The notes under the pieces were generated by a model. The model did no database searches, was not told where the DNA came from, and saw nothing but the letters and a program-made list of their open reading frames with translations. Of a stretch of 64,000 bases of DNA, positions 4,381 to 57,427 are shown in pieces. Within the stretch, counting starts at the first letter, position 1. Each line of letters opens with the position of its first letter. Origin of the DNA: Alphaproteobacteria bacterium (lineage in GTDB: Bacteria; Pseudomonadota; Alphaproteobacteria; UBA9219; RFNS01); NCBI GenBank assembly GCA_037200005.1, contig JBBCGY010000001.1:42416-106415 (forward strand), written 5' to 3'. A program made the position numbers and the translations under genes.

Positions 4381-5696
4381 TGTCTCTTTCGGAATGGCAA
4401 ATATTATCATTTAAAGAAGCTGGTGTTCAGTTGATTGATTGCGATCACAAAACACCCCCGGCATCTTCTTATGGGTATCCATATGTTACGATCCCTCAAA
4501 TCAAAAATGGGCGCATAGATGTGTCTGAAGCAAGGCGGATTACCGCAGAACATTTCAAAGAGTGGACAAGGAAGGCCAATCCAAAGCCCTTTGACGTTGT
4601 CTTATCTCGTAGATGCAACCCAGGAGAAACTGCCCATGTCCCTGCGGGGCTAGAGTTCGCTCTTGGACAAAATCTCGTTTTGTTGCGTGCAAATGGTGAA
4701 AAGGTATTTCCGCGATATTTACGATGGCTTACGCGGGGAGTGTTATGGTGGGAACAGATATCAAAGTTTATTAATGTGGGCGCCGTTTTCGATAGTTTGA
4801 GATGTGCGGACGTTCCAAATTTTCAATTTCCAATACCAGCACTGCATGAACAAAAAGCAATTGCTTCAATATTGACCGCACTGGACGATAAGATCGAACT
4901 GAACCGCCGGATGAATGCGAACCTGGAGGCGATGGCGCGGGCGGTGTTCAAAAGTTGGTTTGTCGATTTCGACCCCGTCCGCGCCAAAATGGCAGGCCGC
5001 CAACCCTTCGGTATGAGCGCGGCTACCGCTGCCTTGTTCCCCTCGCGCCTCGCCCCCTCCGAACTCGGCGATATTCCGGAGGGGTGGTCGGTCGATCAAA
5101 TCGGGAACGCGGTCACCGCCGTTGGCGGCAGCACCCCCAGCACCGAAAATCTAGAATATTGGACTGATGGGCAGTATGCCTGGGTAACGCCAAAAGACCT
5201 CTCTGCACTGAAATCGCCTGTTTTGTTCACAACGGAACGCAGGATAACAGATGCAGGAATCCGTGTTATCAGTTCCGGACTTCTGCCGTCGGGTACTGTT
5301 TTGATGTCTTCCCGTGCGCCAATCGGCTATATCGCAATCGCCGAAACGTCCGTTGCCATCAATCAAGGCTTCATAGCCATCGTTTGTGACAAAGAGCTTC
5401 CCAATTTATACGTCTGGCAATGGCTGCACGCCAATCTTGACATGATCAAAAGCCATGCAAACGGCTCAACCTTTCAGGAAATCAGCAAAGGCAGTTTCCG
5501 GCCTCTCCCCTGCATCATTCCATCAGCAAAGGTTCTCGAAAAATTTCAGGCAATCGTTTTGCCTATCTGGCAAAAACTCGTTGCGAATGAAAAAGAGTGT
5601 CTGGGGCTAGAAAAAACGCGCGACTACCTTCTTCCCAAACTAATCTCCGGCGACATCCGCATCCGCGACGCCGAGAAATTTATGGAGGCTGCATAA
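4377..5696 (+). CDS. hsdS: Type I restriction-modification specificity subunit HsdS (two target-recognition domains)
   Basis: Two low-GC variable domains flank a conserved high-GC central repeat (LDDKIELNRRMNANLEAMARAVFKSWFVDFDP). A similar C-terminal conserved helix follows (LPKLISGDIRI). Confidence 0.9.
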   Translation: MMSLSEWQILSFKEAGVQLIDCDHKTPPASSYGYPYVTIPQIKNGRIDVSEARRITAEHFKEWTRKANPKPFDVVLSRRCNPGETAHVPAGLEFALGQNLVLLRANGEKVFPRYLRWLTRGVLWWEQISKFINVGAVFDSLRCADVPNFQFPIPALHEQKAIASILTALDDKIELNRRMNANLEAMARAVFKSWFVDFDPVRAKMAGRQPFGMSAATAALFPSRLAPSELGDIPEGWSVDQIGNAVTAVGGSTPSTENLEYWTDGQYAWVTPKDLSALKSPVLFTTERRITDAGIRVISSGLLPSGTVLMSSRAPIGYIAIAETSVAINQGFIAIVCDKELPNLYVWQWLHANLDMIKSHANGSTFQEISKGSFRPLPCIIPSAKVLEKFQAIVLPIWQKLVANEKECLGLEKTRDYLLPKLISGDIRIRDAEKFMEAA

Positions 5697-7150
5697 TGAA
5701 TCGCTGGGTAAATTCGTTCCAGAACCATCCTTTCCAAAAGCCATGGAAAGATATTGTGGAGCTTTCAGAAAAGATTGCTCTTCAAGATGAGACTGTCGCA
5801 ACTGACGTCCAAGAGCTTGCGCGTCTAAAAAAGGTTATAACCTATGTTGGCCAGTTAATAGGTGCAGCTGATCCGGAATTGATTCCATTAAGCATATGGA
5901 GTTCTTTTCAGGACCAGGCCACGCAGTGTGCAGATCAAATCAATCAGTACAACAGCAATAAGAACATTACTCACCTCAGCAACGCTAATAGCAATCTAGA
6001 TAATTTATTGACATATGTTCGCCCTTATGTGGTTTCTGCAGAGGGGGCGGCTCAGGCGGCAATGTCTGCGTTCATAGTGTATTCCGACACCATCAATACA
6101 CAGACCGATCTGATACAATCAAAAACCCAAGCCTCTGTTAACGGTACGCAGGCGAACAAAGAAAAGTCTGATGAAATATACAAAGAAATAGAGCAGTCAA
6201 AGCACAACATTCAACAATTGGAACAAAAATTTTTGATCGGCGATAGCAATGAGAAGAGCCTCCAGGAAAGAATGCAGATTCTTCTTGGGGAAGCCCAGGA
6301 GTGGAATAAAATAATTGGTGAGTTTCACAAACGGCTGACAAGCGGCAATGAACAAGAAAGCGCAATTTCGCTACAAATCGAAGAAGCAAAAAATAAAGCT
6401 ACTAAGGATAAGGAGGCTATAGAAAGTGCCCTTCAATTATCTGAAAATTTAATCAAAGACCTCAAAGAGTTTTATGAGCGAGTTTTTGGCAAAGAAGGCA
6501 GTGACGGAAACGTCATGGTCGGTCTAAAGCAAGAATTGGATAACCGCATTAAAGAGCTTGATAATTTTAAAATTAATCAAGGAACAGCCTACAATACCTT
6601 ATTTCAAAAAATTGAATCTCTACTGCCCGGAGCAACAAGCACTGGTCTTGCCAGTGCGTATAGAGAATTAAGAGACTCTTTTGCTGCGCCCATCAATATC
6701 TATACGCTAGTGTTTTGCTTCACCCTAGCAGTGATGTTTTTTGTTGGCTTGTGGGGTGTTGACTTCGGTGATGATGTGGGATTGAACAAGATGCTCGGCA
6801 GTCTCTATCACAAACTCCCACTTTTACTGCCCATCCTGTGGCTGGCAATTTTTGCTTCCAGACGAAGAAGCGAAAGTCAAAGGTTGCAACAAGAATATGC
6901 CCATAAAGAGGCGCTCGCAAAATCATTTCAAAGCTTCAAAAAACAAATTGATGCATTGCAGGAGAAGGACGAGGTCCTTACCAAGAAACTCCTGGATGCT
7001 ATGATCGGTGCCGTGTCCCATAATGCATCACAAACACTGGATGGAAAACATGGAGATAAAATTCCAACGCAAGAACTTCTAGAGGGAGTTATCAAGAAAT
7101 TTCCTGCGCAAAGCTTTTTTGAAAAATTAGTCGATAAAATCCTTAAATAG
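5696..7150 (+). CDS. coiled-coil protein with two C-proximal TM helices (485 aa), unknown function, embedded in the RM operon
   Basis: The ATG overlaps the hsdS stop (TAATG). Long heptad-like K/E/Q-rich segments are followed by two hydrophobic helices (IYTLVFCFTLAVMFFVGLWGV; LPLLLPILWLAIFA) and a ~100-aa tail. GC is very low (~40%). Confidence 0.6.
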   Translation: MNRWVNSFQNHPFQKPWKDIVELSEKIALQDETVATDVQELARLKKVITYVGQLIGAADPELIPLSIWSSFQDQATQCADQINQYNSNKNITHLSNANSNLDNLLTYVRPYVVSAEGAAQAAMSAFIVYSDTINTQTDLIQSKTQASVNGTQANKEKSDEIYKEIEQSKHNIQQLEQKFLIGDSNEKSLQERMQILLGEAQEWNKIIGEFHKRLTSGNEQESAISLQIEEAKNKATKDKEAIESALQLSENLIKDLKEFYERVFGKEGSDGNVMVGLKQELDNRIKELDNFKINQGTAYNTLFQKIESLLPGATSTGLASAYRELRDSFAAPINIYTLVFCFTLAVMFFVGLWGVDFGDDVGLNKMLGSLYHKLPLLLPILWLAIFASRRRSESQRLQQEYAHKEALAKSFQSFKKQIDALQEKDEVLTKKLLDAMIGAVSHNASQTLDGKHGDKIPTQELLEGVIKKFPAQSFFEKLVDKILK

Positions 7151-14820: not shown

Positions 14821-17800
14821 ATGGTGGCACCTGCGAAGAAATTTCACGAAGCGAACGGCGAACTCACCAATGAGGCAGGGGCAACGCGACCGCCGCTCTC
14901 GAGGAACAGCCTCTGGCGGACACTGCGCCCCGGGATCTCGGTGGGAGTAAGCCTCGCGGCAGTCGTCGCTTGCGAAAGCGGCGAACCCAACGCTTCAAAT
15001 GACAACATCGTTTCGATTTCCCAAGCGATAGGCTCTGCGACAATCTATAGCTTGCCTACCAATGTTTTGATGCCCAATGCCATCAATAATCAAAATCTCA
15101 TTGTGGGCCAGGGTCTGCCTTCGATCTATGATGCCAACACGGGAACATTTAGTAGCCTTGAAGTAAACCAGCCTTCGGGGGCGGTCACTTCCTATGCAAT
15201 TAGCAATGCCGGTCACGTTGTCGGCAATTCATTCAATGTTGGGCCGGTTTCCAATTCGGCGTTCATTTCACAGGGCGGACATTTGTCCGATCTATACGCC
15301 GGCAACAACAACGGGGTGACCAGCGTCGCTTACGGCGTCAACAATTATGGCCAAGTCGTCGGCACGATGCCGGTGACGGTCAACGATGCGAACAATAGTC
15401 CACATCCTTTCACGCATGCGTTCTCGTGGCAGGGCAGCGTTACAGACCTTACACCGAACTACTATGGAAATTCAGCCGCCTATGGCATCAACGATGCTGG
15501 GCAGATCGTGGGAACGATAGGAACTGCGGGGGTCAAGTGGCAGGGCGGATCGTCAAGCACGCTGCCGAGCGGCACCAGCACGCCCGCCATGATCAACAAT
15601 GTCGGTCAGATCGTCGGGACATATAGTTCAGGCGGTTCGTCGCACGCTTTCCTTGTGCAGAGCGGCACCCTGACCGATCTCGGAGCCATACAGGGAAGCA
15701 CACCTGTGAGGATCAACAACAAAGGACAAGTTACGGGCGGCTTCTACAACACGGGTGCCGGACAATATTACCCGAGCGTCTGGCAGAATGGCGTCGTGGT
15801 TACGATTCCCACTCTGTCGGGCATTCCCGCAGGCTGGTCTATCACGTCGATAAACGGCATCAATGACAGCGGAACCGTCGTAGGGCAAGGCACGCTTTCG
15901 GGTTCTTCACGGGGTTTTTACCTAACTTCGCCGCAGCTTCTGAACTACGCCATTGCCGGAAAGCCCTACGATCCGAAAGCGAATGGTGGTGAGGATTCGG
16001 CGTCAACCCCGACAGACGATCTATGTGGAACTCATGGCATGTGTGTGCCCAACGCGCAATTGCTGTCGGCCAGCTTGAATTTGAACGATACGCCGATTGG
16101 GTATCAGCCGCCCAAAGGGCCACCAGCCTATATCCGGCTTACATATAATCATCGTGACAGTGTCGCGCCCAGCAGCACTTCCTCGCATGTTGGGCCAAAC
16201 TGGACTCTGAATGTCATTTCTTACATTCAGGATGATCCGGCCAGCCCGGGCCAGAGCGTCACGCGCAACGTGGCGGGCGGCGGTATCGTCGACTACACTT
16301 TTGAGGCAGGGCAGTTCAATACCACCACGGGTGCATTCGGGCCGGAGAAGCAAACCGGGGCGATCTTGAAACGGACTCCCGCGACAGGGTTCAGCGCCAG
16401 TGCTTCCTATGAGCTTTCCTTTCCCGATGGGGCCAAGCAAATATTCTCCTACCCGGATGGAAGCTTCAATTATCCGCGCCGCGCATTCCTGACGGATATC
16501 GTTGATGCCTCAGGCCAGGGCCTGCATTTTGGCTACAATTATCTTCAAGGAACTTTCGGCGCGATCAATTGCACGCCGGGATGTCCGCAACTGCAATCAG
16601 TTTCTGATGCTAATTTCCGTGCAACAAACTTCGTCTACGGTGACGCATCTAATGTCTTGCGCGTGACGCGGATTAATGACCCGTTCGGGCGTCACGCCGA
16701 TTTAGCTTATGATGGCAGCGGACGGCTTTCGTCAATCACGGATGTGATCGGCATTCAATCGTCTTTCACCTATGACACCACCGACCCTACTTTCATCAAA
16801 AAGCTAACGACACCCTATGGCGATAGCAATTTCGTCTTTGGGCAAGATACGGCGACGGATCGTCGTTGGCTCACACTCTCCGATGCCGTGGGCAATACGG
16901 AAAAAGTGGAATACCGGGGCAGCAGCGCCAGCGGCATAGCGGCGTGCGACAAAAACACGAGCGATGCGTCGTGCAGTGTCTCGACCTCCGTGCCGACAGG
17001 CATGCCTAACGGCATCAATAACGCCGATCTCGACAAGCGCAACACCTTTGTCTGGAACAAATGGATGTATGCGAATGGCTATGGCAGCGATTACACGCAG
17101 GCGAATGTTACCCATTGGCTCAAGGACGGTGCGGGCAATCCCGTGGGGATTCCGGAAAGCGTCAAGCCGCTGTACGAATCCCGCATTTGGTATAATTATC
17201 CCGGCCAGAACGATCCTAGCACCCCAGGAACCCTGTCTGTGCCGAGGGCGACGGGCCGCGTGATCACCGATCCGCTTTACGGGCAAGCGCCGCAGAATCA
17301 GGTTTACCAAAGTCAATATAACAGCCTCGGCAAGCCCACCTTGACCGTCGATCCCTACAAGGTTTCAGGCAACAACAATGAAGGCCGAACTACACGCATG
17401 ACCTATGATGCCTCCGGCGTCGATCTTTTGACGGTGGAACAGAAAACCGGCAGCGGAACGCCGGGGACATGGGCGACGATTGCTTCCTACGTCTATACCG
17501 ATCCGACAGAACAGCCCACATCGATCCACAAACCGATCCGCTATACCGACGCGGCGGGGCAAACTTATAAATTCAAATACAATGGCGACGGCCAATTGAT
17601 CTATGCCGCCAATCCCTACAACGATACGACGTATAATGAATATCATCCGTCCGGCAAGCTCCTGCGGACGACCATGCCTGTGCCGAGCGTAAACTGGAAT
17701 ACCATCGATTATGGAACCGATATTAACGGCGCGCCGACGGGGGCGAGCAACAGCAGCGCCCTAAGGGACACCGCCATTACCTACGACTCCGCCGATCGTC

Positions 17801-20202
17801 CGTATGACGTGACCGACCGGATGGGTCTGGTGAAGCGTTTCGGCTACGACAATCTCGACCGGGTAACGCGGGTGGATTACGCCCCCGGCACGGCGGGCAC
17901 GACCTATGAGACGAACACCTATACCAACCTCGACCTGACATCGCACCGCGACCGGCTTGGCCGGGTTAGCACCGATGTTTACACGGCGAACCGGCAGCTG
18001 TGGCTGAGCTTCAATGCTTCGGGAACGCGGCGGGGCTTCACCTATTACCCGAACGGCGCGCTACAAGGCTACTACGACGAGAACGACCATCCTACAATCT
18101 ACGGCATCGACGGCCAGGGACGCGCCAACGCCGTCGTCTATCCCAATGGCAACCAGACGAATTACTACTACGATGATGGCGGGCGGATGCGCACCATTGT
18201 CGATCTCGACGGCTCGAACCAGCGCTGGCGGAACATTAAATATAACGTCGATAATAGCGTCCATATCCGCGACTATACCAACCCGGCAAATCCGTCCGAT
18301 CCCGTGGTTCTGGCGACGACAACCGCGACCTTCACCTACGATCCATGGTTCCCCGGACAAATGACTTCAATGGCCGATGCCAGCGGAACGACCAACTATA
18401 CATACAAAACCGTAGGCACCGTCGGCGCCTTACAACTCGCGACCGAAAATCCGCCGACGGTAAGCGGCGACGCGGATAAAATCACCTACACCTATGACCA
18501 GAAGGGACGGCTCGCCTCGCGCCAGATCGGTATCGGCACGGCGAGCGTGCTGCCGCAGGAAAGCTGGGTGCGCGACACCTATGGCCGCATTAACAGGCAC
18601 ATCATTCCCGACGGCAACCTGTTCTATTACGACTTCAACGGCGCGAGCAATCAGGTGACAATGCGCGCGTTTCGCAATCAGGCGCTGACGGAGATCGACC
18701 CGCTGAATACGCGCACGATGATGAGCTACGACACGGCGGCGAACGACTCGCGGCTGCTGACGATCAACAACCCGCCCTACGACAACAGCGCGCCCGGCGC
18801 GCGGGACTTCACCCTCAATTGGGGATCGTCGCCCGCCAATCCGTACGTTCCGGCGACGATCACCGACTCCGCTGGAGGCCCCGGCGGGGCGTGGGGACAG
18901 CGGGTGTGGACGATGGGCTATGACGCGCGCGACCGGCTGACCTCGGCGGTCGCCGCCGACCGCAGCTATTCGTTTACCCTGGACGCGCCGGGCAACGCGA
19001 CGAGCTTCACCAGCACGCACTATCCGAGCGGCGGGCTGTATAGCTTTAACTCGACCTACAACACGTCGAACCAGATGACGGTGGCGAACGGCAACGCGCT
19101 GATCTACGACCCCTACGGCAACCTCGTCACCCACACGAACTACCGCAGCTTCAAGTACGACGCCGAGAACCGCCTGATCGAGGTCGACTTCCCCGCCGCG
19201 CCCGCCGACAAGGTTGAGATGCAATATGACGGTCTTGGTCGCCGCACGCAGATCAAATCCACCATCGGCGGCGTCGTCACGACGCGGAACCTGCAATGGT
19301 GCGCCCAGACGACCTCGCCGCCGTTCCAGGGCGCGGCGGAAGAGATATGCGTCGAGCGCGACGCATCGGGCGGCATGCAGCGCATGGTCTATCCCGAGGG
19401 CGAATATCGCGCCAACGGCGGCCGGTACTTTTATGAACGCGACCAGACCGGCAACATCCGCGACGTGATGAAGATGGCGGCGGGATTGACGACCGCCGCG
19501 CGCGATAGCTCCTTCAACTACACGCCTTATGGCGGCGTCGACGGCAAAGACGGCACTGCCGAGCCGCTGCAGCAGTTCGCGGGACTGCTGTATGAGAAGA
19601 ACAGCAACCTGTTCCTCTCCCGCACCCGCGCCTATGCCCCATGGATCGGCAGATGGCTCCAGCGCGATCCGATTGGGCAGAATGGGGGGAGTAATGTTTA
19701 TGAGTATGCGGGGGCGAGTCCGATTAACAAGATTGATCCGAGCGGGTTGCAGGGGGTGCGACCTGGGTTAATAGAAACGATGCGACCTACAATAGGAGTG
19801 CCACCAGCAGCGGGGATCAACGAGGGGGCAGGAAATTACGCCGATTATCTTCAAGAAAATGGAGAAATGATGGGTGATCTAGCCACCCTTTATAGGGCCA
19901 CTAGCGCGGCGGTTGCCGGTGCGAGCAACCAATCAATGCGAGAGGATATTGAAAAAGCAAAAGTATGCACATCGTTTGGAAACAGCATGTCGGCGGATCA
20001 GCCGTTATGGTGCGGGCCTGGCGGATGCGCGGATAGCGTCAGGCAGCAGTGGCTGGATGCGACCGGCGGCTTAGTGTATCCACAAATCATCGAGTCTTTC
20101 AAAAAGAGGTTTGAACCGGCTCCCTCGCGGCTTGTGTCGACGCCGATGCGTGGCAATGACTTCGGTAATTCGGTTTTATTCCCTAATGTGGGCCCAGGTT
20201 AG
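14821..20202 (+). CDS. Rhs-family polymorphic toxin (1793 aa): N-terminal HAF repeats, RHS/YD repeats, RHS core, DPxGL cleavage motif, ~150-aa C-terminal toxin domain
   Basis: Repeated NxxGQ(V/I)VG and HAF motifs in the first ~350 aa. Many YDxxGR(L/R) repeats. RHS core YFYERDQTGNIRDVM. IDPSGLQ (PxxxxDPxGL) at ~19740, followed by a unique tail. A lipobox-like VVAC lies near the N-terminus. Confidence 0.9.
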   Translation: MVAPAKKFHEANGELTNEAGATRPPLSRNSLWRTLRPGISVGVSLAAVVACESGEPNASNDNIVSISQAIGSATIYSLPTNVLMPNAINNQNLIVGQGLPSIYDANTGTFSSLEVNQPSGAVTSYAISNAGHVVGNSFNVGPVSNSAFISQGGHLSDLYAGNNNGVTSVAYGVNNYGQVVGTMPVTVNDANNSPHPFTHAFSWQGSVTDLTPNYYGNSAAYGINDAGQIVGTIGTAGVKWQGGSSSTLPSGTSTPAMINNVGQIVGTYSSGGSSHAFLVQSGTLTDLGAIQGSTPVRINNKGQVTGGFYNTGAGQYYPSVWQNGVVVTIPTLSGIPAGWSITSINGINDSGTVVGQGTLSGSSRGFYLTSPQLLNYAIAGKPYDPKANGGEDSASTPTDDLCGTHGMCVPNAQLLSASLNLNDTPIGYQPPKGPPAYIRLTYNHRDSVAPSSTSSHVGPNWTLNVISYIQDDPASPGQSVTRNVAGGGIVDYTFEAGQFNTTTGAFGPEKQTGAILKRTPATGFSASASYELSFPDGAKQIFSYPDGSFNYPRRAFLTDIVDASGQGLHFGYNYLQGTFGAINCTPGCPQLQSVSDANFRATNFVYGDASNVLRVTRINDPFGRHADLAYDGSGRLSSITDVIGIQSSFTYDTTDPTFIKKLTTPYGDSNFVFGQDTATDRRWLTLSDAVGNTEKVEYRGSSASGIAACDKNTSDASCSVSTSVPTGMPNGINNADLDKRNTFVWNKWMYANGYGSDYTQANVTHWLKDGAGNPVGIPESVKPLYESRIWYNYPGQNDPSTPGTLSVPRATGRVITDPLYGQAPQNQVYQSQYNSLGKPTLTVDPYKVSGNNNEGRTTRMTYDASGVDLLTVEQKTGSGTPGTWATIASYVYTDPTEQPTSIHKPIRYTDAAGQTYKFKYNGDGQLIYAANPYNDTTYNEYHPSGKLLRTTMPVPSVNWNTIDYGTDINGAPTGASNSSALRDTAITYDSADRPYDVTDRMGLVKRFGYDNLDRVTRVDYAPGTAGTTYETNTYTNLDLTSHRDRLGRVSTDVYTANRQLWLSFNASGTRRGFTYYPNGALQGYYDENDHPTIYGIDGQGRANAVVYPNGNQTNYYYDDGGRMRTIVDLDGSNQRWRNIKYNVDNSVHIRDYTNPANPSDPVVLATTTATFTYDPWFPGQMTSMADASGTTNYTYKTVGTVGALQLATENPPTVSGDADKITYTYDQKGRLASRQIGIGTASVLPQESWVRDTYGRINRHIIPDGNLFYYDFNGASNQVTMRAFRNQALTEIDPLNTRTMMSYDTAANDSRLLTINNPPYDNSAPGARDFTLNWGSSPANPYVPATITDSAGGPGGAWGQRVWTMGYDARDRLTSAVAADRSYSFTLDAPGNATSFTSTHYPSGGLYSFNSTYNTSNQMTVANGNALIYDPYGNLVTHTNYRSFKYDAENRLIEVDFPAAPADKVEMQYDGLGRRTQIKSTIGGVVTTRNLQWCAQTTSPPFQGAAEEICVERDASGGMQRMVYPEGEYRANGGRYFYERDQTGNIRDVMKMAAGLTTAARDSSFNYTPYGGVDGKDGTAEPLQQFAGLLYEKNSNLFLSRTRAYAPWIGRWLQRDPIGQNGGSNVYEYAGASPINKIDPSGLQGVRPGLIETMRPTIGVPPAAGINEGAGNYADYLQENGEMMGDLATLYRATSAAVAGASNQSMREDIEKAKVCTSFGNSMSADQPLWCGPGGCADSVRQQWLDATGGLVYPQIIESFKKRFEPAPSRLVSTPMRGNDFGNSVLFPNVGPG
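18996..19750. repeat. direct repeat copy 1 (~755 bp, ~98% identical to 21505-22258): rhs core-end segment
   Basis: Near-identical nucleotide and protein sequence (GNATSFTSTHYPSGGLYSF...PINKIDPSGL) in both copies. The antisense ORF-track entries are duplicated too (19140-19385 = 21651-21896). Confidence 0.85.
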
Positions 20203-20207
20203 TCCTA

Positions 20208-21478
20208 TGAAAAAGTTTACTCTATTGCTTGTCGCGCTTTGTAGTCTGACAATGTTACCGGCTCATGCCGCTGACCAAGACTCCAAACCACCCGTCATTG
20301 ATATTCCTGCCACGCGAAAAGAGGCGGAGTCTGGAGATGCTCGGGCTCAATATAATCTGGGCATAGCTTATCTCAACGGTTACGGGGTGAAGAAAAATAA
20401 AGATGAAGCTATTGAATGGATTTACAAAGCAGGGAAGAACAATGATGCCCTCGCAATATATTTCTTGGGCAGCGCATATCATGATGGCGACCTTTTGCCA
20501 CAAGACTACGCCAAGGCTATGAAGTGGTATCACAGGTCCGATGAATTATACGGCAGTCCCCTTGCGCAGAATATGCTTGGCGTGATGCACGAAAACGGTC
20601 AGGGGGCTCCACAGAATTATGAAGAAGCGGCTAGGTGGTATCGCAAAGCTGCCGAGAATATTTACGCACCGGCTCAATCCCATCTTGGATTCCTATACTA
20701 CGCTGGACGCGGCGTTCCTAAGGACGATCAAAAGGCTCTATATTGGCTTAAGAAAGCAGCCATACAAAACGATGCGCCAGCAAAGCTTATGCTAGGCATT
20801 ATGCACTATAAAGGCGAAGGAGTGGAAAAGAATTACGTTAAAGCTGTCAGCTATTTTCGCGAAGCCGCAGACGTCGGAATATCGATAGCTGAACGATATT
20901 TGGGAAATATGTATTACCACGGCGAAGGCGTTTCCAAGGATGAAGCCCAGGCTGTGTCTTGGTGGCGCAAAGCCGCCGAACAAGGGGATAGGGAGTCGGA
21001 AAAGATCATAGGTGGTATGTACTATTATGGCACAGGAGTGTCGAAGGATTTTTCCCAAGCCGTTTTATGGTGGCAAAAAGCTGCGGAAAAGGGTGATGTC
21101 GATGCTCAATGCAACTTGGCGAAAGCTTACTATCATGGAGAAGGTATAGGAAAAGATGAAACTCAAGCTGTGTTATGGTGGCGGAGGGCCGCGGCACAAG
21201 GACATGGAGAATCCCTCCTTTATTTAGGACAAGCGTATTTTAGTAGCATAGGCGTATCGCAAGATGATGTGCAGGCTTATATATGGCTAAGCTTGGCGGC
21301 TACAAGAAATCAGTCGTCAGCGGTTGCAACACTCACGGAACTCGAAAAGTCCATGACGCCGGAACAAATCGCTGAAGCCAGAAAACGCGTGGCAGAATGG
21401 AAACCCAAGCCTGAGCCAAAGCCTGCCCCAATAGGGCCAATACCCGAAATTCTAAAAGAAGTCCGTGAAGATTTATGA
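20208..21478 (+). CDS. Sel1-repeat protein with signal peptide (candidate periplasmic immunity protein for Rhs-CT1)
   Basis: Signal peptide MKKFTLLLVALCSLTMLPAHA. At least 9 Sel1 repeats (AQYNLGIAYLNGYGVKKNKDEAIEWIYKAG...). Sits immediately downstream of the rhs toxin tip. GC ~45% versus ~62% for the rhs body. Confidence 0.8.
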
Positions 21479-22668
21479 TCTCGACTTCGAGGATGCATTT
21501 GGGCAATGCGACGAGCTTCACCAGCACGCACTATCCGAGCGGCGGGCTGTATAGCTTTAACTCGACCTACAACACGTCGAACCAGATGACGGTGGCGAAC
21601 GGCAACGCGCTGATCTACGACCCCTACGGCAACCTCGTCACCCACACGAACTACCGCAGCTTCAAGTACGACGCCGAGAATCGCCTGATCGAGGTCGACT
21701 TCCCCGCCGCGCCCGCCGACAAGGTTGAGATGCAATATGACGGTCTTGGCCGCCGCACGCAGATCAAATCCACCATCGGGGGCGTCGTCACGACGCGGAA
21801 TCTGCAATGGTGCGCCCAGACGACCTCGCCGCCGTTCCAGGGCGCGGCGGAAGAGATATGCGTCGAGCGCGACGCATCGGGCGGCATGCAGCGCATGGTC
21901 TATCCCGAGGGCGAATATCGCGCCAACGGCGACCGGTACTTTTATGAACGCGACCAGACCGGCAACATCCGCGACGTGATGAAGATGGCGGCGGGATTGA
22001 CGACCGCCGCGCGCGACAGCTCCTTCAACTACACGCCTTATGGCGGCGTCGACGGCAGAGACGGCACCGCCGAGCCGCTGCAGCAGTTCGCGGGACTGCT
22101 GTATGAGAAGAACAGCAACCTGTTCCTCTCCCGCACCCGCGCCTACGCCCCATGGATCGGCAGATGGCTCCAGCGCGATCCGATTGGGCAGAATGGCGGC
22201 GCGAATGTTTATGAATATGCGGGGGCGAGTCCGATTAACAAGATTGATCCGAGCGGGCTTCAAAGCATCCAGAATGCGGATGACTGGATAAAACAGAGAA
22301 ATGCCCCTGCTCAGCCGTCAAATAGTATTTGGAGTGAGATCCTAGATAAAATCAGAGAACCTGTGTCTAGAAATGAAGCCATTAGTGAGATTACAAATTT
22401 CCGTCAATCTGGAGAGGCCCAAACTGAAGCACAGATAGCTAGAATGCTCATGGGTTTACCCGTCGAACCTGATTTTTCTGTTGCTATAGGAGGGGCTGAA
22501 GGTGAGCAAGATCTTGGCAGAGCGATTATGTCGGTAGCGCGCGAGATTTTGCGCCGCCCTGCGGAGCAGTCGTGCCCAATAGTTCAGAGAAAAGTCTTCG
22601 GTCAATCCTTGCCACCAAGTGATTTTGGTGACAAGAATCTCCCACTGCCATCTATATTAACCCTTTAA
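21475..22668 (+). CDS. orphan rhs C-terminal cassette: duplicated core-end plus an alternative 136-aa CT toxin domain
   Basis: The first 260 aa match Rhs residues ~1390-1650, including DPSGLQ. A different tail follows. Its start overlaps the Sel1 gene stop (ATGA), and it lacks the N-terminal 1400 aa. Confidence 0.8.
   Translation: MISTSRMHLGNATSFTSTHYPSGGLYSFNSTYNTSNQMTVANGNALIYDPYGNLVTHTNYRSFKYDAENRLIEVDFPAAPADKVEMQYDGLGRRTQIKSTIGGVVTTRNLQWCAQTTSPPFQGAAEEICVERDASGGMQRMVYPEGEYRANGDRYFYERDQTGNIRDVMKMAAGLTTAARDSSFNYTPYGGVDGRDGTAEPLQQFAGLLYEKNSNLFLSRTRAYAPWIGRWLQRDPIGQNGGANVYEYAGASPINKIDPSGLQSIQNADDWIKQRNAPAQPSNSIWSEILDKIREPVSRNEAISEITNFRQSGEAQTEAQIARMLMGLPVEPDFSVAIGGAEGEQDLGRAIMSVAREILRRPAEQSCPIVQRKVFGQSLPPSDFGDKNLPLPSILTL
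21505..22258. repeat. direct repeat copy 2 of the rhs core-end segment
   Basis: See copy 1. The offset between copies is 2509 bp. Confidence 0.85.
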
Positions 22669-25584: not shown

Positions 25585-25776
25585 ATGAGCCAGGAAGCAT
25601 ATCGCGTGAAAGAATTCTGCAACCGCTACGCCATTTCAAAAGCCAGCTTCTACCGGGAAACAGCGGCGAAGCGGCTGCATATCCTAAAACGTGGCCGTAC
25701 AACGCTCGTTGCCCGCACCGAAGCCGAACGCTGGTTTGAAAGCCTTGGCCAAGGCCAGCCGCAGCAATCAGCCTGA
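25585..25776 (+). CDS. AlpA/Xis-like phage-type transcriptional regulator (63 aa)
   Basis: RBS AAGGGAGGAAG. AlpA-like HTH (FCNRYAISKASFYRETAAKRLHILKRGRTTLVARTEAERW). Immediately upstream of the integrase. Confidence 0.7.
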   Translation: MSQEAYRVKEFCNRYAISKASFYRETAAKRLHILKRGRTTLVARTEAERWFESLGQGQPQQSA

Positions 25777-25843
25777 TCGCATTCAATATCCCGAATATTT
25801 CCAAAGCCATTTTTCGTCAATCTTATTCTCATGGAGGCATGTC

Positions 25844-27031
25844 ATGCGCCATACGGGACATATTCGCCAGCGTTCAGAAGGGAGTTTCGAGCTTCGCTAT
25901 AGCATCGGCACCGATCCGGTCACGGGAAAATGGAAAGTCAAAACCGTCACCGTTAAGGGAACGCGCAAAGCTGCCGAGAAAGAATTGCGCCGCATACTCG
26001 ATGCAATCGATGACAATGATTATGTCGAACCCAATAAAATCACTACCCGTGATTTTTTGACACAATGGCTTGAAACAATGCGTTCCCAGATAACCCCCAA
26101 ATCCTATGAAAGCTACGCTGAAATAGTCGATAACTTCCTTATCCCAACTCTTGGCGGTCATATTCTGGCGAAACTTGCTCCGGCTGTTATCCAAAAAGCC
26201 TACAATGGATGGGAAGCTGGTGGCCGCAGGGATAAAAAGGCGGGCGGGCTGGCGGCGCGTTCCCGTCTCTATATCCACCGCATCCTTAAATCGGCACTCA
26301 AACATGCCGTGCAAATACAGCTAATCGCCCGCAATCCCGCCGACGCGGTTAAAGCGCCGCGCGTCAAGAAAGCCGCCATAACTACATTGACCGTGGATCA
26401 ATCGGCGGCGCTGCTCGATGCCCTGTCCGGCAAGCCGCTTTATTGGCCTGTGTTGCTTGCCCTAACAACGGGCATGCGCCGGGGTGAAATTCTGGCGCTT
26501 CGCTGGAAGAATATCGACTTTGAAAAGAAAACTGTTCGCGTCGTCGAAAGTCTAGAGCAAACCAACACAGGCATTCGCTTCAAGGCTCCGAAAACGGAAC
26601 GGAGTCGTGCCGTCATGTTGCCGGATTATGCCGTTGAAGAACTGCGGAGACTGAAAAAAGAACAGGAGAAAAAATTGTCGGAATCAGGAATCGGCCAAAC
26701 CACTGAAACGCTGGTTTGCGGTCGCTATGACGGCGAACCGCTATGGCCTACCTCACTTACGCATGAATTCGTGAAGGCCATGAAGAAACTGCCGAAACTG
26801 CCGCGCGCCAGATTCCATGATTTGCGCCATTCCCATGCCACGCAACTCCTGACAGCAGGAATCCATCCCAAAATCGCGCAAGAACGGCTGGGACATACCA
26901 CGATTACGACAACCCTAGACCTCTATTCCCATGCGACGGACACCATGCAAGACGAGGCTGCATCAAAGCTCGACAATGCCTTCCGTTCTGCTATAAAGGC
27001 CCGTTCCGACCAAGCGCCACGACTAGGATAA
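25844..27031 (+). CDS. tyrosine-type site-specific recombinase/integrase (phage integrase family)
   Basis: Catalytic region RFHDLRHSHATQLLTAGIHPKIAQERLGHTTITTTLDLYSH (R...HxxR...Y). The most likely start is MRHTGHIRQRSEG rather than the extended ORF from 25691. Confidence 0.9.
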   Translation: MRHTGHIRQRSEGSFELRYSIGTDPVTGKWKVKTVTVKGTRKAAEKELRRILDAIDDNDYVEPNKITTRDFLTQWLETMRSQITPKSYESYAEIVDNFLIPTLGGHILAKLAPAVIQKAYNGWEAGGRRDKKAGGLAARSRLYIHRILKSALKHAVQIQLIARNPADAVKAPRVKKAAITTLTVDQSAALLDALSGKPLYWPVLLALTTGMRRGEILALRWKNIDFEKKTVRVVESLEQTNTGIRFKAPKTERSRAVMLPDYAVEELRRLKKEQEKKLSESGIGQTTETLVCGRYDGEPLWPTSLTHEFVKAMKKLPKLPRARFHDLRHSHATQLLTAGIHPKIAQERLGHTTITTTLDLYSHATDTMQDEAASKLDNAFRSAIKARSDQAPRLG

Positions 27032-27111: not shown

Positions 27112-27187
27112 GACCTTGTAGCTCAGCCGGTAGAGCATCTGACTTTTAATCAGGGGGTCGCGGGTTCGAACCCCGCCGAGGTCACCA
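27112..27187 (+). tRNA. tRNA-Lys (anticodon UUU) with encoded CCA
   Basis: Cloverleaf: acceptor gaccttg/cgaggtc; D-arm gctc-agccggta-gagc; anticodon arm tctga-cTTTTaa-tcagg; T-arm gcggg-ttcgaac-cccgc; discriminator a; CCA. Confidence 0.9.
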
Positions 27188-55270: not shown

Positions 55271-56713
55271 TCATTCTCCGCCGCTGTTGCCGCGCGTTTC
55301 GATCACCAGAATTCTCTGCCCCGCGGTCGGATTATCATGCAAGCGCCCGAAAGGCTGCGGCTTGGCGTCGACAAAACCGCTAAGCAGATTGCGCACGGCG
55401 TCTTCGAACGAGCCGGAGAAATTCACGCTGGCCTGAATCGGATAGTCATATTCGGTCGCCCATACCAGTTCGACATTGGCGCGCTCGCTCCACTTTTTGA
55501 TGACGGCGCGCAGCTGATCACCCGGTTCGGCTTTCCACGCTTCCGCCGGAGCGGCTTGCGTCGCAGGCGTGAGGGGACTCGGTGTCACGACGGAGCCCGT
55601 TACCGGCGGCGCATCGGACGGCGGCGCGGCGGTAATAGGCTGAACCGCATCCACCGCATCTTTCGCGGGAGGCACGGAAGCCGGCGCGGGCTCAACCGGC
55701 GGCAAGGGTGGCGGGGCATCGGCGGCAAGCGCGGGCGCGGCGGCCGCGGCAATCATCGAATCATCCACGACCGGCGGCAGCGCGGCAGCCGTAGCCGGCG
55801 TTTCCAGCGGCGGCAGAGGCACCATCATGGCCTCGGGGGGAGCACCCGCCACAGGCGCGGGCATATCGGAGCCGGCCGGCGTTGCGGCAGCGGCCGCCGA
55901 AGGAACAGGCGGCGCCTCGGTGGGCAACTCGGCTACCGGCAAAGGCGCGGGAACTTCCAGCGGAGCGGCGGACGCTGCATGCACCCCTGTTTTACCGCCC
56001 AGACCCGCGCGGGCAATTTTGACGATTTTACCCTCTTCCTGGGCCGACAGCCCCGCGCCCGTCAGAGCATCATTCAGCACCGTCCGCCAAGGCTTGCCGC
56101 CCTGCCAGTCGACCGACGTGGAATTGTCTATTCCCTGCTCCAGCGCAAAACCGTAATCCGGCGGCAAAATCTGTTTGAGCGCGACCGTAAGCGGAATCTT
56201 CTTGCCAAATCCCACAATGGCCGGCCCTTGGTCAACCGGAAGAGGAGGCGGGACATCGGCGGCAAGCGTGGGCGCCAATTCCGGCGGCGGGACGGATAGC
56301 GGCGCAGACGGCTCTATCGGCGACGGCTCTATCGGCGGCAAGGGCACCGGAGAAGCAACGGCAGCCATAGGCTCAAGCGGCAATGGCTCCATCGGCGCCA
56401 AGGCTTGCGGCGACGATGCCACAGGAGAGGCGGCCGCCGGGGGGCTTACTTCCGGCAATTGCATGGGAGCGGGCAAAGCGGCCTGATCGGCAGGCGCTGG
56501 CGCAAGCGGAACTGCCGGCACATCCTCGACAGGAGCGGGAACGGGCGCGGGTGCAAGCGGAACCGCGGCAGGAGCCTCTTCAAGCGGCGTGACCCACTGA
56601 AACCCGGCCTGGGCGGTGCCGCACATAAGCGTAACGCCGATGATGCCTAATGCGAGACTGAGCAAGAGACGATGTTGTCGGGCAAACCAGGCCATGAGCG
56701 AACACTTCCGCAT
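55271..56713 (-). CDS. TcpQ-domain protein (R64 PilL-like), Pro/Ala-rich
   Basis: Signal peptide, long PAPxP low-complexity region and C-terminal TcpQ-like domain (WKAEPGDQLRAVIKKWSERANVELVW). Confidence 0.55.
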   Translation of the reverse strand: MRKCSLMAWFARQHRLLLSLALGIIGVTLMCGTAQAGFQWVTPLEEAPAAVPLAPAPVPAPVEDVPAVPLAPAPADQAALPAPMQLPEVSPPAAASPVASSPQALAPMEPLPLEPMAAVASPVPLPPIEPSPIEPSAPLSVPPPELAPTLAADVPPPLPVDQGPAIVGFGKKIPLTVALKQILPPDYGFALEQGIDNSTSVDWQGGKPWRTVLNDALTGAGLSAQEEGKIVKIARAGLGGKTGVHAASAAPLEVPAPLPVAELPTEAPPVPSAAAAATPAGSDMPAPVAGAPPEAMMVPLPPLETPATAAALPPVVDDSMIAAAAAPALAADAPPPLPPVEPAPASVPPAKDAVDAVQPITAAPPSDAPPVTGSVVTPSPLTPATQAAPAEAWKAEPGDQLRAVIKKWSERANVELVWATEYDYPIQASVNFSGSFEDAVRNLLSGFVDAKPQPFGRLHDNPTAGQRILVIETRGNSGGE

Positions 56714-56759
56714 AGGAGGGATAAAACCGATTCGTGATTCATACTACGTTATAGTCAGT

Positions 56760-56960
56760 CCGCTTGAAAACCCGAAAAAACTCCGTCGCGCCTACCCCGT
56801 CATTAAGGAGGAAACCCATCGCGAGCGCGACATAGATTTTTCGGATTTTTAGGCGGACGTCATCCACATCACTTGAAAACCCAAAAAATATTCTGTCGCA
56901 TCCGCATGGCTTTACTGCTTGGGGGAGAACGATGGCGACGGAATATTTTTTGGGTTTTCA
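56760..56960. promoter_or_regulatory. three copies of a CTTGAAAACCC(A/G)AAAAA...GTCGC motif (two direct, one inverted) in the pilL-icmT intergenic region
   Basis: Copies at 56765-56792 and 56869-56900 (direct) and 56926-56958 (inverted; a 28-bp near-perfect IR with a ~30-bp spacer). Confidence 0.45.
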
Positions 56961-57115
56961 AGCCAAGTAACTATAGGAAATAGCCGGAAAAGCGCCATGA
57001 GAAAACAACAATTTTCGACTTTTCCCCAGAAGCAGGCGTGACATGGGTGCAACGGACGGTGAACAACAAAGATTAACGGATAGATAAGCGGGAAACAAAC
57101 CGCTCGATAGCGGCT

Positions 57116-57427
57116 TTATGAAGCGGTTTCGTCGCTCTCTTCCTGCGCCCGGGCATCTGCGGCGCCATAATCGGTCATGCGCCGCCGCAAAAGACGGATT
57201 GTTGCCGGACGCTCTTGGCCAAGAACCCAGCAGCGCAGGGCGCGCAGCGCCGACTCGAAGCTCAAGCCGCGCTGCTCGACGGCCCAGAAGATCAAAATCG
57301 TGATGACGGTCAGCGTCAAGGTCCAAAGCTGGATATACATCAAGCAGGCCAGAACCACGAAAAAAAGCCGCGCGTCAAAGATAAAGAAGCGGGCGATTTT
57401 CTGACTATTGCGCCAATGATCATCCAT
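57116..57427 (-). CDS. IcmT/TraK-family small membrane protein of type IVB secretion systems
   Basis: MDDHWRNSQKIARFFIFDARLFFVVLACLMYIQLWT matches the IcmT/TraK signature (HWRdS..pArFF.fDAR...hIrLWT). 103 aa. Confidence 0.6.
   Translation of the reverse strand: MDDHWRNSQKIARFFIFDARLFFVVLACLMYIQLWTLTLTVITILIFWAVEQRGLSFESALRALRCWVLGQERPATIRLLRRRMTDYGAADARAQEESDETAS

Follow-up and report, generated by a model that had tools for sequence, protein, structure and literature searches.

The window, i.e., the whole 64-kb stretch of DNA analyzed in this work, carries a T4BSS/pilus gene cluster, in which the spacer of interest separates pilL from an icmT/traK-like gene, the last one of the upstream dotD-traI(DotC-like)-dotB-icmT block. 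After pilL, the genes of the pilN secretin, pilO, a PilQ-like ATPase, a PilR-like protein and a bundlin-like pilin follow. The genes flanking the spacer are:

55271-56713, minus strand: pilL, first gene of the type IVb pilus operon (TcpQ and STN domains, Pfam)
57116-57427, minus strand: icmT/traK-like gene (PF28014, IcmT_2, on an identical product; synteny)

The cluster is chromosomal, and its GC content is like that of the adjoining housekeeping genes. Counted from the first in-frame ATG of pilL (56713), the spacer comprises 402 bp, in agreement with the approximately 400 bp reported in an earlier note on this DNA; homology favors the ATG at 56695 as the start (ATGGCC.., corresponding to M-A-L/W-F-A in the relatives), and with this start the spacer is about 420 bp long. 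In the pilL coding region, positions 56488-56587 (minus strand) contain direct repeats whose periods are 51 and 27 nt; they belong to the Pro/Ala-rich N-terminal part of the protein; the length of PilL varies from 314 to 521 aa among the relatives, which suggests expansion and contraction of repeats. At the opposite side of the spacer, a hairpin with 13-nt arms, AAACCGCT.../...AGCGGTTT, spans the icmT stop codon (57097-57129) and is followed by GTTTGTTTCC; it is possibly a weak intrinsic terminator, which the consensus scan did not flag.

The earlier note described in this spacer three copies of an approximately 28-bp motif, and all three were recovered. Copy 1, CTTGAAAACCCGAAAAA, occupies positions 56763-56779 of the 64-kb window on the plus strand, copy 2, CTTGAAAACCCAAAAAA, occupies 56872-56888 on the same strand, and the 17-mer of copy 3 (56946-56962, minus strand) is identical to the CTTGAAAACCCAAAAAA of copy 2, with GTCGC located 5-6 nt after each of the three copies. 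Their occurrence is non-random, as the 17-mer with up to 3 mismatches has 5 matches in the 64-kb window, against a mean of 0.30 in dinucleotide shuffles (0 of 100 shuffles reach 5). Copies 2 and 3 indeed form the near-perfect inverted repeat proposed for them (I2; 28-nt arms, 96% complementary, 35-nt spacer according to the repeat finder). A fourth, degenerate arm at 56825-56858 had been overlooked, with which copy 1 pairs as the inverted repeat I1 (34-nt arms, 82% complementary, 33-nt spacer). One more inverted repeat, I3 (TATAGTCAG.../...AACTATA), encloses the region 56750-56975 from outside. Since the four arms pair as I1 and I2, the feature consists of two adjoining palindromic units of approximately 118 bp and is no triplet:

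56750-56975, unstranded: composite element of two head-to-head units, left ends abutting and right ends, CGGACTGACTATA, facing outward; bounds TATAG...CTATA
56750-56866, minus strand (canonical): unit A, right end TATAGTCAGTCCG (56750-56762) toward pilL, arms 56758-56791 and 56825-56858; nhmmer E = 1e-24
56859-56975, plus strand (canonical): unit B, right end CCAAGTAACTATA (56963-56975) toward icmT, arms of I2; nhmmer E = 1e-24
56763-56791, plus strand: arm 1 (copy 1 above), CTTGAAAACCCGAAAAAACTCCGTCGCGC
56825-56853, minus strand: arm 2, which pairs with arm 1 in inverted orientation and is degenerate (3 mismatches to the 17-mer); minus-strand sequence CCTAAAAATCCGAAAAATCTATGTCGCGC
56872-56899, plus strand: arm 3 (copy 2 above), CTTGAAAACCCAAAAAATATTCTGTCGC
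56935-56962, minus strand: arm 4 (copy 3 above), inverted partner of arm 3
56854-56871, unstranded: junction of 18 nt between the hairpin cores of units A and B

The nhmmer scores differed strongly between the two orientations: either unit reaches 83.4 bits in the favored one, against 45.2 bits (unit A) and 47.4 bits (unit B) in the other. The canonical strand is thus minus for unit A and plus for unit B, the right ends face outward, and this arrangement accounts for the outer inverted repeat. Two complete 13-nt left termini would not fit into the 18-nt junction, which implies truncation of at least one left end or an overlap of both. The two units display 75% identity in the arms and 37% in the loop, being no nearer to each other than to the copies in other genomes, and hence they did not arise by a recent tandem duplication; by its appearance, unit A is the older-looking one. 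The 246-nt region containing both units folds with -103.1 and -98.7 kcal/mol on the two strands (z = -8.3 and -8.4 vs shuffles), and the separate units fold as ssDNA with -27.1 kcal/mol (z = -4.7, unit A) and -30.7 kcal/mol (z = -8.3, unit B).

The ORFs located wholly inside the spacer across the units are spurious (46 aa at most), and the longer chance ORFs merely extend into it. Neither a sigma-70 promoter nor an intrinsic terminator consensus was revealed when the spacer in the window and three further copies were scanned, so that the ideas of a terminator and of a consensus outward promoter were dropped. The best outward -35/-10 candidate found by eye, TTCGGG-N17-TATAAC, matches the -35 hexamer in 2 positions of 6 and was rejected. 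No IHF-like WATCAANNNNTTR site was seen at the few ends inspected by eye. Searching Rfam 15 at permissive E-values yielded only hairpin-shaped miRNA-precursor models with 17-19 bits vs gathering scores of 62-89, and a blastn search of the PLSDB plasmids in the 'distant' mode with the region 56500-57300 as a query yielded no match.

Insertion of the element into the icmT-pilL spacer

The corresponding loci of relatives were located via the adjoining DotB ATPase homologs (82-89% identical) with the same gene order icmT-pilL-pilN-pilO. No trace of the element was found in the icmT-pilL spacers (232-377 bp) of five distinct relatives (L008, L009/L021, L010/L011, L020 and L012-14); L007, a read assembly of the same organism as that of the window, was not treated as an independent case. 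Automatic alignment of whole spacers with MAFFT scattered the insert, and a virtual-excision alignment was used in its place. With positions 56741-56975 (235 bp) removed, the window is collinear across the junction with L008, L009, L010, L020 and L021, at approximately 60% identity over about 145 nt, a divergence too high for a base-perfect empty site to be delineated. The junction is directly flanked by conserved blocks, ATTGTTGTTTT..ATGGCG upstream and GAATCACGAATC...ATGGCC downstream, and it coincides with the TCTA center of GTGATTC-TCTA-GAATCAC, a palindrome common to the same five loci. There, the GTGATTC-N4-GAATCAC palindrome is situated about 45 nt upstream of pilL (e.g., L008 6865-6890) and is followed by GAATC, so that palindrome and trailing GAATC comprise three GANTC (CcrM-type) sites. 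As the insert sits in the palindrome center, only the right half is retained in the window:

56729-56740, minus strand: surviving right half of the palindrome, GAATCACGAATC, delineated by the virtual-excision alignment with L008, L009, L010, L020 and L021
56741-56749, unstranded: 9-nt filler separating the element from the conserved GAATCAC block, ATACTACGT on the plus strand

The GTGATTC-N4-GAATCAC palindrome is a candidate operator of the pilus operon, and the insertion represents its natural disruption in the genome of the window. Another block, CTTGCG-N17-TTACAT, is conserved approximately 190 nt upstream of pilL in L008-L010, L020 and L021 (e.g., L009 6640-6680); its spacer varies in sequence, as is typical of a genuine promoter, and we consider it a candidate control element as well. 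No counterpart of this block is recognizable in the window spacer between 57000 and 57115. The search for elements controlling the pilus operon is thereby redirected to these two candidates in the relatives.

Independent members of the family were detected in one more syntenic locus, L017, which originates from a different sample and encodes DotB with 88% identity. Diverged copies are present there in at least three spacers within 7 kb. The pilL-pilN spacer (6185-6461) is enlarged to 276 bp by a full copy of 118 bp (6251-6368), whose 40-nt arms are 88% complementary and which has a half copy on either side. Outside this spacer, half copies (1546-1628 and 4804-4858) lie upstream of dotD and approximately 35 nt upstream of the pilL ATG. 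The half copy at pilL is located downstream of the GAATCAC motif and, consequently, in a position unlike that of the insert in the window. Nesting, fragments and differing insertion points in one and the same spacer are characteristic of a repeat that moves rather than of a regulatory site with a fixed position.

Dispersed copies and their common hairpin

An exact-pattern scan covering one genome per species revealed the motif on three contigs of the alphaproteobacterial MAG REEB170, where the sites proved to be complete palindromic units of approximately 120 bp in the spacers of divergently transcribed housekeeping genes (L002 5611-5739, L003 3512-3635 and L004 4378-4500). A profile search added a fourth, more diverged copy (L003 7595-7720), and a paired-arm scan of metagenomes added two further units on the contigs L015 and L016 of one sample. 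The neighbors of these copies are functionally unrelated: an rluA-like pseudouridine synthase and a tadA-like tRNA-type deaminase; pyrB (aspartate carbamoyltransferase) and a pyrC-like amidohydrolase; a DnaJ-domain protein and bolA; coaBC and an hxlR regulator; the 3' end of asmA. In REEB170, the element fills the divergent spacers with its ends at approximately 0-45 nt from both start codons, no consensus promoter being detectable, and this proximity hints at a built-in expression function lying outside the "selfish insert" view. Gene callers predicted no ORF in any of the element copies seen. On L015 (3336-3385) and L016 (5915-5936), the adjoining ORFs (127 aa and HxlR-like, 128 aa, respectively) extend into the right arm or terminus of the element, so that their final codons and stop come from the repeat (e.g., ...SPLENPKKFPLL and stop).

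Single arms without a partner in L001 (a Bdellovibrionales MAG) and L005 (Adlercreutzia, within a coding region) were discarded as chance matches. Viral contigs scanned with the conserved right end gave 0 matches. In total, the exact-pattern scans of very large collections returned few copies; either the family is rare or it diverges too fast for exact patterns. In the 83 kb of contiguous sequence available for the genome of the window (the window, L022 and L023), the element is confined to this locus, and no partial matches to it were found elsewhere in the window or at the other loci. The earlier note had named dispersal of the motif over intergenic regions as the observation that would speak against a regulatory array; such dispersal is evident in REEB170, while the window's own genome offers a single locus within those 83 kb.

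All copies are built according to the same plan: a 13-nt terminus, a 91-nt hairpin core and another 13-nt terminus, usually with TA on both flanks. The core, from CTTGAAAACC to GGTTTTCAAG, measures 89-92 nt in eight copies. The left end reads TA followed by TAC(A/T)(C/G)CGTCAA-CTTGAAAACCC, the right end reads GGGTTTTCAAG-CGGAC(G/T)GACTA followed by TA, i.e., the termini are TAGTCAGTCCGCTTGAAAACCC-type ends, and the polarity is common to all copies, one orientation scoring 35-50 bits higher. TA is present directly outside both ends in seven of the nine copies and a single TA is present in the empty site; with TA invariant on the flanks, a target duplication and the element's own TA termini look alike. 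The core has a GC content of 0.34-0.49 vs approximately 0.61 for the genome, its arms being A/T-rich (CTTGAAAACCCGAAAAA...). On average, the copies share 78% identity in the arms and 35% in the loops. Across the units, arms of 28-40 nt are 82-96% complementary, and the ssDNA folds range from -27 to -39 kcal/mol (z = -4.7 to -11.6).

RNAalifold analysis of the nine full copies resulted in one helix of 30 pairs, 12 of which contain compensatory double changes. Standard pairs account for 94.3% of the pair cells, compared with 36-64% when the partners are slid by 1-3 columns, and none of 500 shuffles reached the observed pairing or covariation. The stem and the length of the family are under constraint. 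Palindromy, fixed length and compensatory changes in the stem, considered together, suggest that a single-stranded hairpin, of either DNA or RNA, is recognized or selected.

These data bear directly on the main proposal of the earlier note, according to which the repeats are an array of regulator sites, i.e., a dimeric or oligomeric transcription factor bound to the CTTGAAAACCC...GTCGC arms controls transcription of the pilus operon. The location directly upstream of pilL, the inverted-repeat symmetry typical of operators and the better conservation of the arms than of the loops would agree with it. However, the array is missing from the same spacer in the five distinct syntenic relatives, and these possess another conserved palindrome, which the insert breaks; beside pyrB/pyrC-like, tadA-like, bolA, coaBC and asmA genes the copies make up no coherent regulon; and conserved arms of 30-45 nt with a fixed 91-nt core and compensatory changes fit a hairpin rather than protein contacts. 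We consequently regard this proposal as very improbable, while the other suggestion of the note, a small repeat element, is borne out by the dispersed copies and by the filled and empty orthologous sites.

Taking into account the stability of the fold on the pilL-sense strand (-103 kcal/mol, z = -8.3), the element could also be thought of as a locus-specific structured RNA, namely a 5'-leader riboregulator, an sRNA, or a processing/stability element of the icmT-pilL transcript. No terminator tails are present, so that transcription would run through, and the stems of 28-34 bp are of the kind that may serve as RNase III substrates. Yet the structure is not kept at this locus in the relatives, copies of the unit are found in either orientation amid unrelated surroundings, and Rfam provides nothing except sub-threshold miRNA noise. 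Moreover, the mobile-repeat interpretation leaves room for incidental effects on RNA, so that an effect of this kind is no true alternative to it. In the strict, locus-specific sense this explanation seems quite improbable to us.

The position of long ssDNA hairpins next to Dot/Icm-type transfer genes brings to mind a DNA-transfer signal of the T4BSS as well, such as an oriT or a single-strand initiation/promoter hairpin. However, the element is missing from syntenic T4BSS/pil clusters and present in chromosomal housekeeping spacers; besides, no relaxase or nikA-type neighbor occurs among the genes examined, and none of the PLSDB plasmids resembles the region. The probability of this function is, in our opinion, extremely low.

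Relation to known intergenic repeats and possible effects at pilL

Very probably, therefore, the feature represents two head-to-head copies of a non-autonomous dispersed non-coding hairpin repeat of the MITE/REPIN kind, inserted upstream of pilL. Like MITEs, its units are short (about 118 bp, below the limit of approximately 500 bp), possess neither a transposase nor a real ORF, form a stable stem-loop and occur at sites filled in some genomes and empty in others; as regards multiplicity, four copies on three contigs in REEB170 and occupation of at least three spacers in L017 stand beside the one locus in 83 kb of the window's genome. The family is apparently new to description: searching the accessible literature for the repeat sequence retrieved nothing relevant, only primers. 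It adds to the known repeats a family from uncultured Alphaproteobacteria carrying Dot/Icm-type T4BSS and type IVb pilus clusters, and its recognition guards against annotating the repeat array as a regulator site of the pilus or as a transfer origin. With its unusually clear hairpin covariation and fixed core length, it would also be a tidy test case for repeat recognition.

By the definitions given in PMC3184786, the Correia/NEMIS repeats of Neisseria and the ERIC-type MITEs are non-coding elements of approximately 105-157 bp with long terminal inverted repeats and a stem-loop. The element under study is like them in its small size, lack of coding capacity and stem-loop, in its mostly intergenic location, often 5' of genes, in TA at both flanks, and in that relatives differ in which sites are filled and which are empty. 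The termini of Correia repeats begin with TATAG, as do those of the element, no other resemblance to the Correia consensus being apparent by inspection. The differences are that the copies have no consensus promoter and, at the few ends inspected, no IHF-type site, that the hosts are uncultured Alphaproteobacteria, and that the loop is essentially unconserved between genomes at a fixed core length, which is more REPIN-like.

REP arms, which are G+C-rich imperfect palindromes of short length, carry a conserved GTAG-like 5' tetranucleotide, a trait known from work on RAYT and REP. REPINs, in turn, were described as two conserved inverted ends separated by a less conserved spacer of constrained length, forming a hairpin in ssDNA or RNA with frequent compensatory changes (PMC3116915). 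The element shares this pattern (78% identity in the arms vs 35% in the loops, a core of 89-92 nt, double changes in 12 of 30 pairs), and the family is distributed among several related uncultured Alphaproteobacteria, so that it might be a true REPIN instead of a DDE-type MITE, i.e., a doublet of REP-like arms which is replicated by a single-copy RAYT (Y1) acting on the ssDNA hairpin and is inherited vertically within the alphaproteobacterial lineage. On the other hand, no RAYT gene is tied to the family, the arms, 30-45 nt in length, are A/T-rich in contrast to the G+C-rich REP palindromes, and no GTAG-type 5' tetranucleotide was seen by eye in the aligned arms. The scans did not reveal copy numbers of tens to hundreds, and the TA flanks, TATAG termini and nested insertion resemble cut-and-paste or copy-paste MITEs more, suggesting a different transposition chemistry. 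A REPIN in the narrow sense is thus rather unlikely.

Among the repeats of Alphaproteobacteria, those named CIR (Caulobacter and others) are listed in a table of PMC3184786 as intergenic repeats of approximately 110 bp with inverted-repeat organization. The element is similar to them in size, organization and hosts, and it is set apart by the tabulated description, not by sequence: CIR are defined by their association with CcrM GANTC sites, while no GANTC was noticed by eye in the arms and termini of the element. Such sites occur only in the flanking palindrome which the element interrupts, and in this it is unlike CIR. BIMEs are clusters of REP units in alternating orientation, and adjoining palindromic units in opposite orientation, combined into a composite array within an intergenic spacer, are a common trait; the element comprises just two units with 75% arm identity, and no conserved linker motifs were seen between the units. 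It is best filed, in our view, with the bacterial intergenic hairpin repeats of the MITE/REPIN type.

The non-autonomous element would be mobilized in trans, at present or formerly. Most likely, the enzyme would be a TA-targeting DDE transposase of the IS630/Tc1 type reading the conserved termini and arms, as in IS630/Tc1-like MITE behavior; it is favored by the TA on the flanks, the ends of the TATAG type and the nesting of one insertion, and mobilization of this type has been proposed for Correia- and ERIC-type MITEs (definitions in PMC3184786). A hairpin-recognizing Y1 transposase, as for REPINs, would be a less likely mobilizing enzyme.

Any role of the element at the pilL locus would be secondary to its insertion there. 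Lacking a terminator tail (U-tail), it should be transcribed through from any upstream start, and co-transcription would place two very stable hairpins with stems of 28-34 bp in the 5' leader of pilL or in the icmT-pilL read-through RNA. By analogy, these stems are plausible RNase III substrates: the stems of Correia/NEMIS repeats are reported to be cleaved by this enzyme. Additionally, the insert parts pilL from the upstream half of the ancestral palindromic site. It may further be asked if the insert is non-neutral, i.e., if the hairpin family preferentially colonizes the 5' regions of genes and acts as a portable expression module or a regulator-uncoupling device, considering the REEB170 ends at 0-45 nt from start codons and the fact that two lineages acquired it upstream of pilL independently. 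This generalization appears doubtful to us; if true, the split palindrome would rewire control of the pilus operon, e.g., by releasing it from a regulator linked to the cell cycle or methylation, and a processing site of the RNase III type would be added to the pilL leader as well.

Apart from the hairpin repeat, the window contains at its beginning (1-27200) a genomic island of low GC content (0.41-0.55) with type I restriction-modification genes, a Fic protein and large RHS-repeat proteins (14821-20202 and 21475-22668). A tyrosine integrase gene (25691-27031) adjoins tRNA-Lys (27112-27187), and this pair probably marks the boundary of the island.
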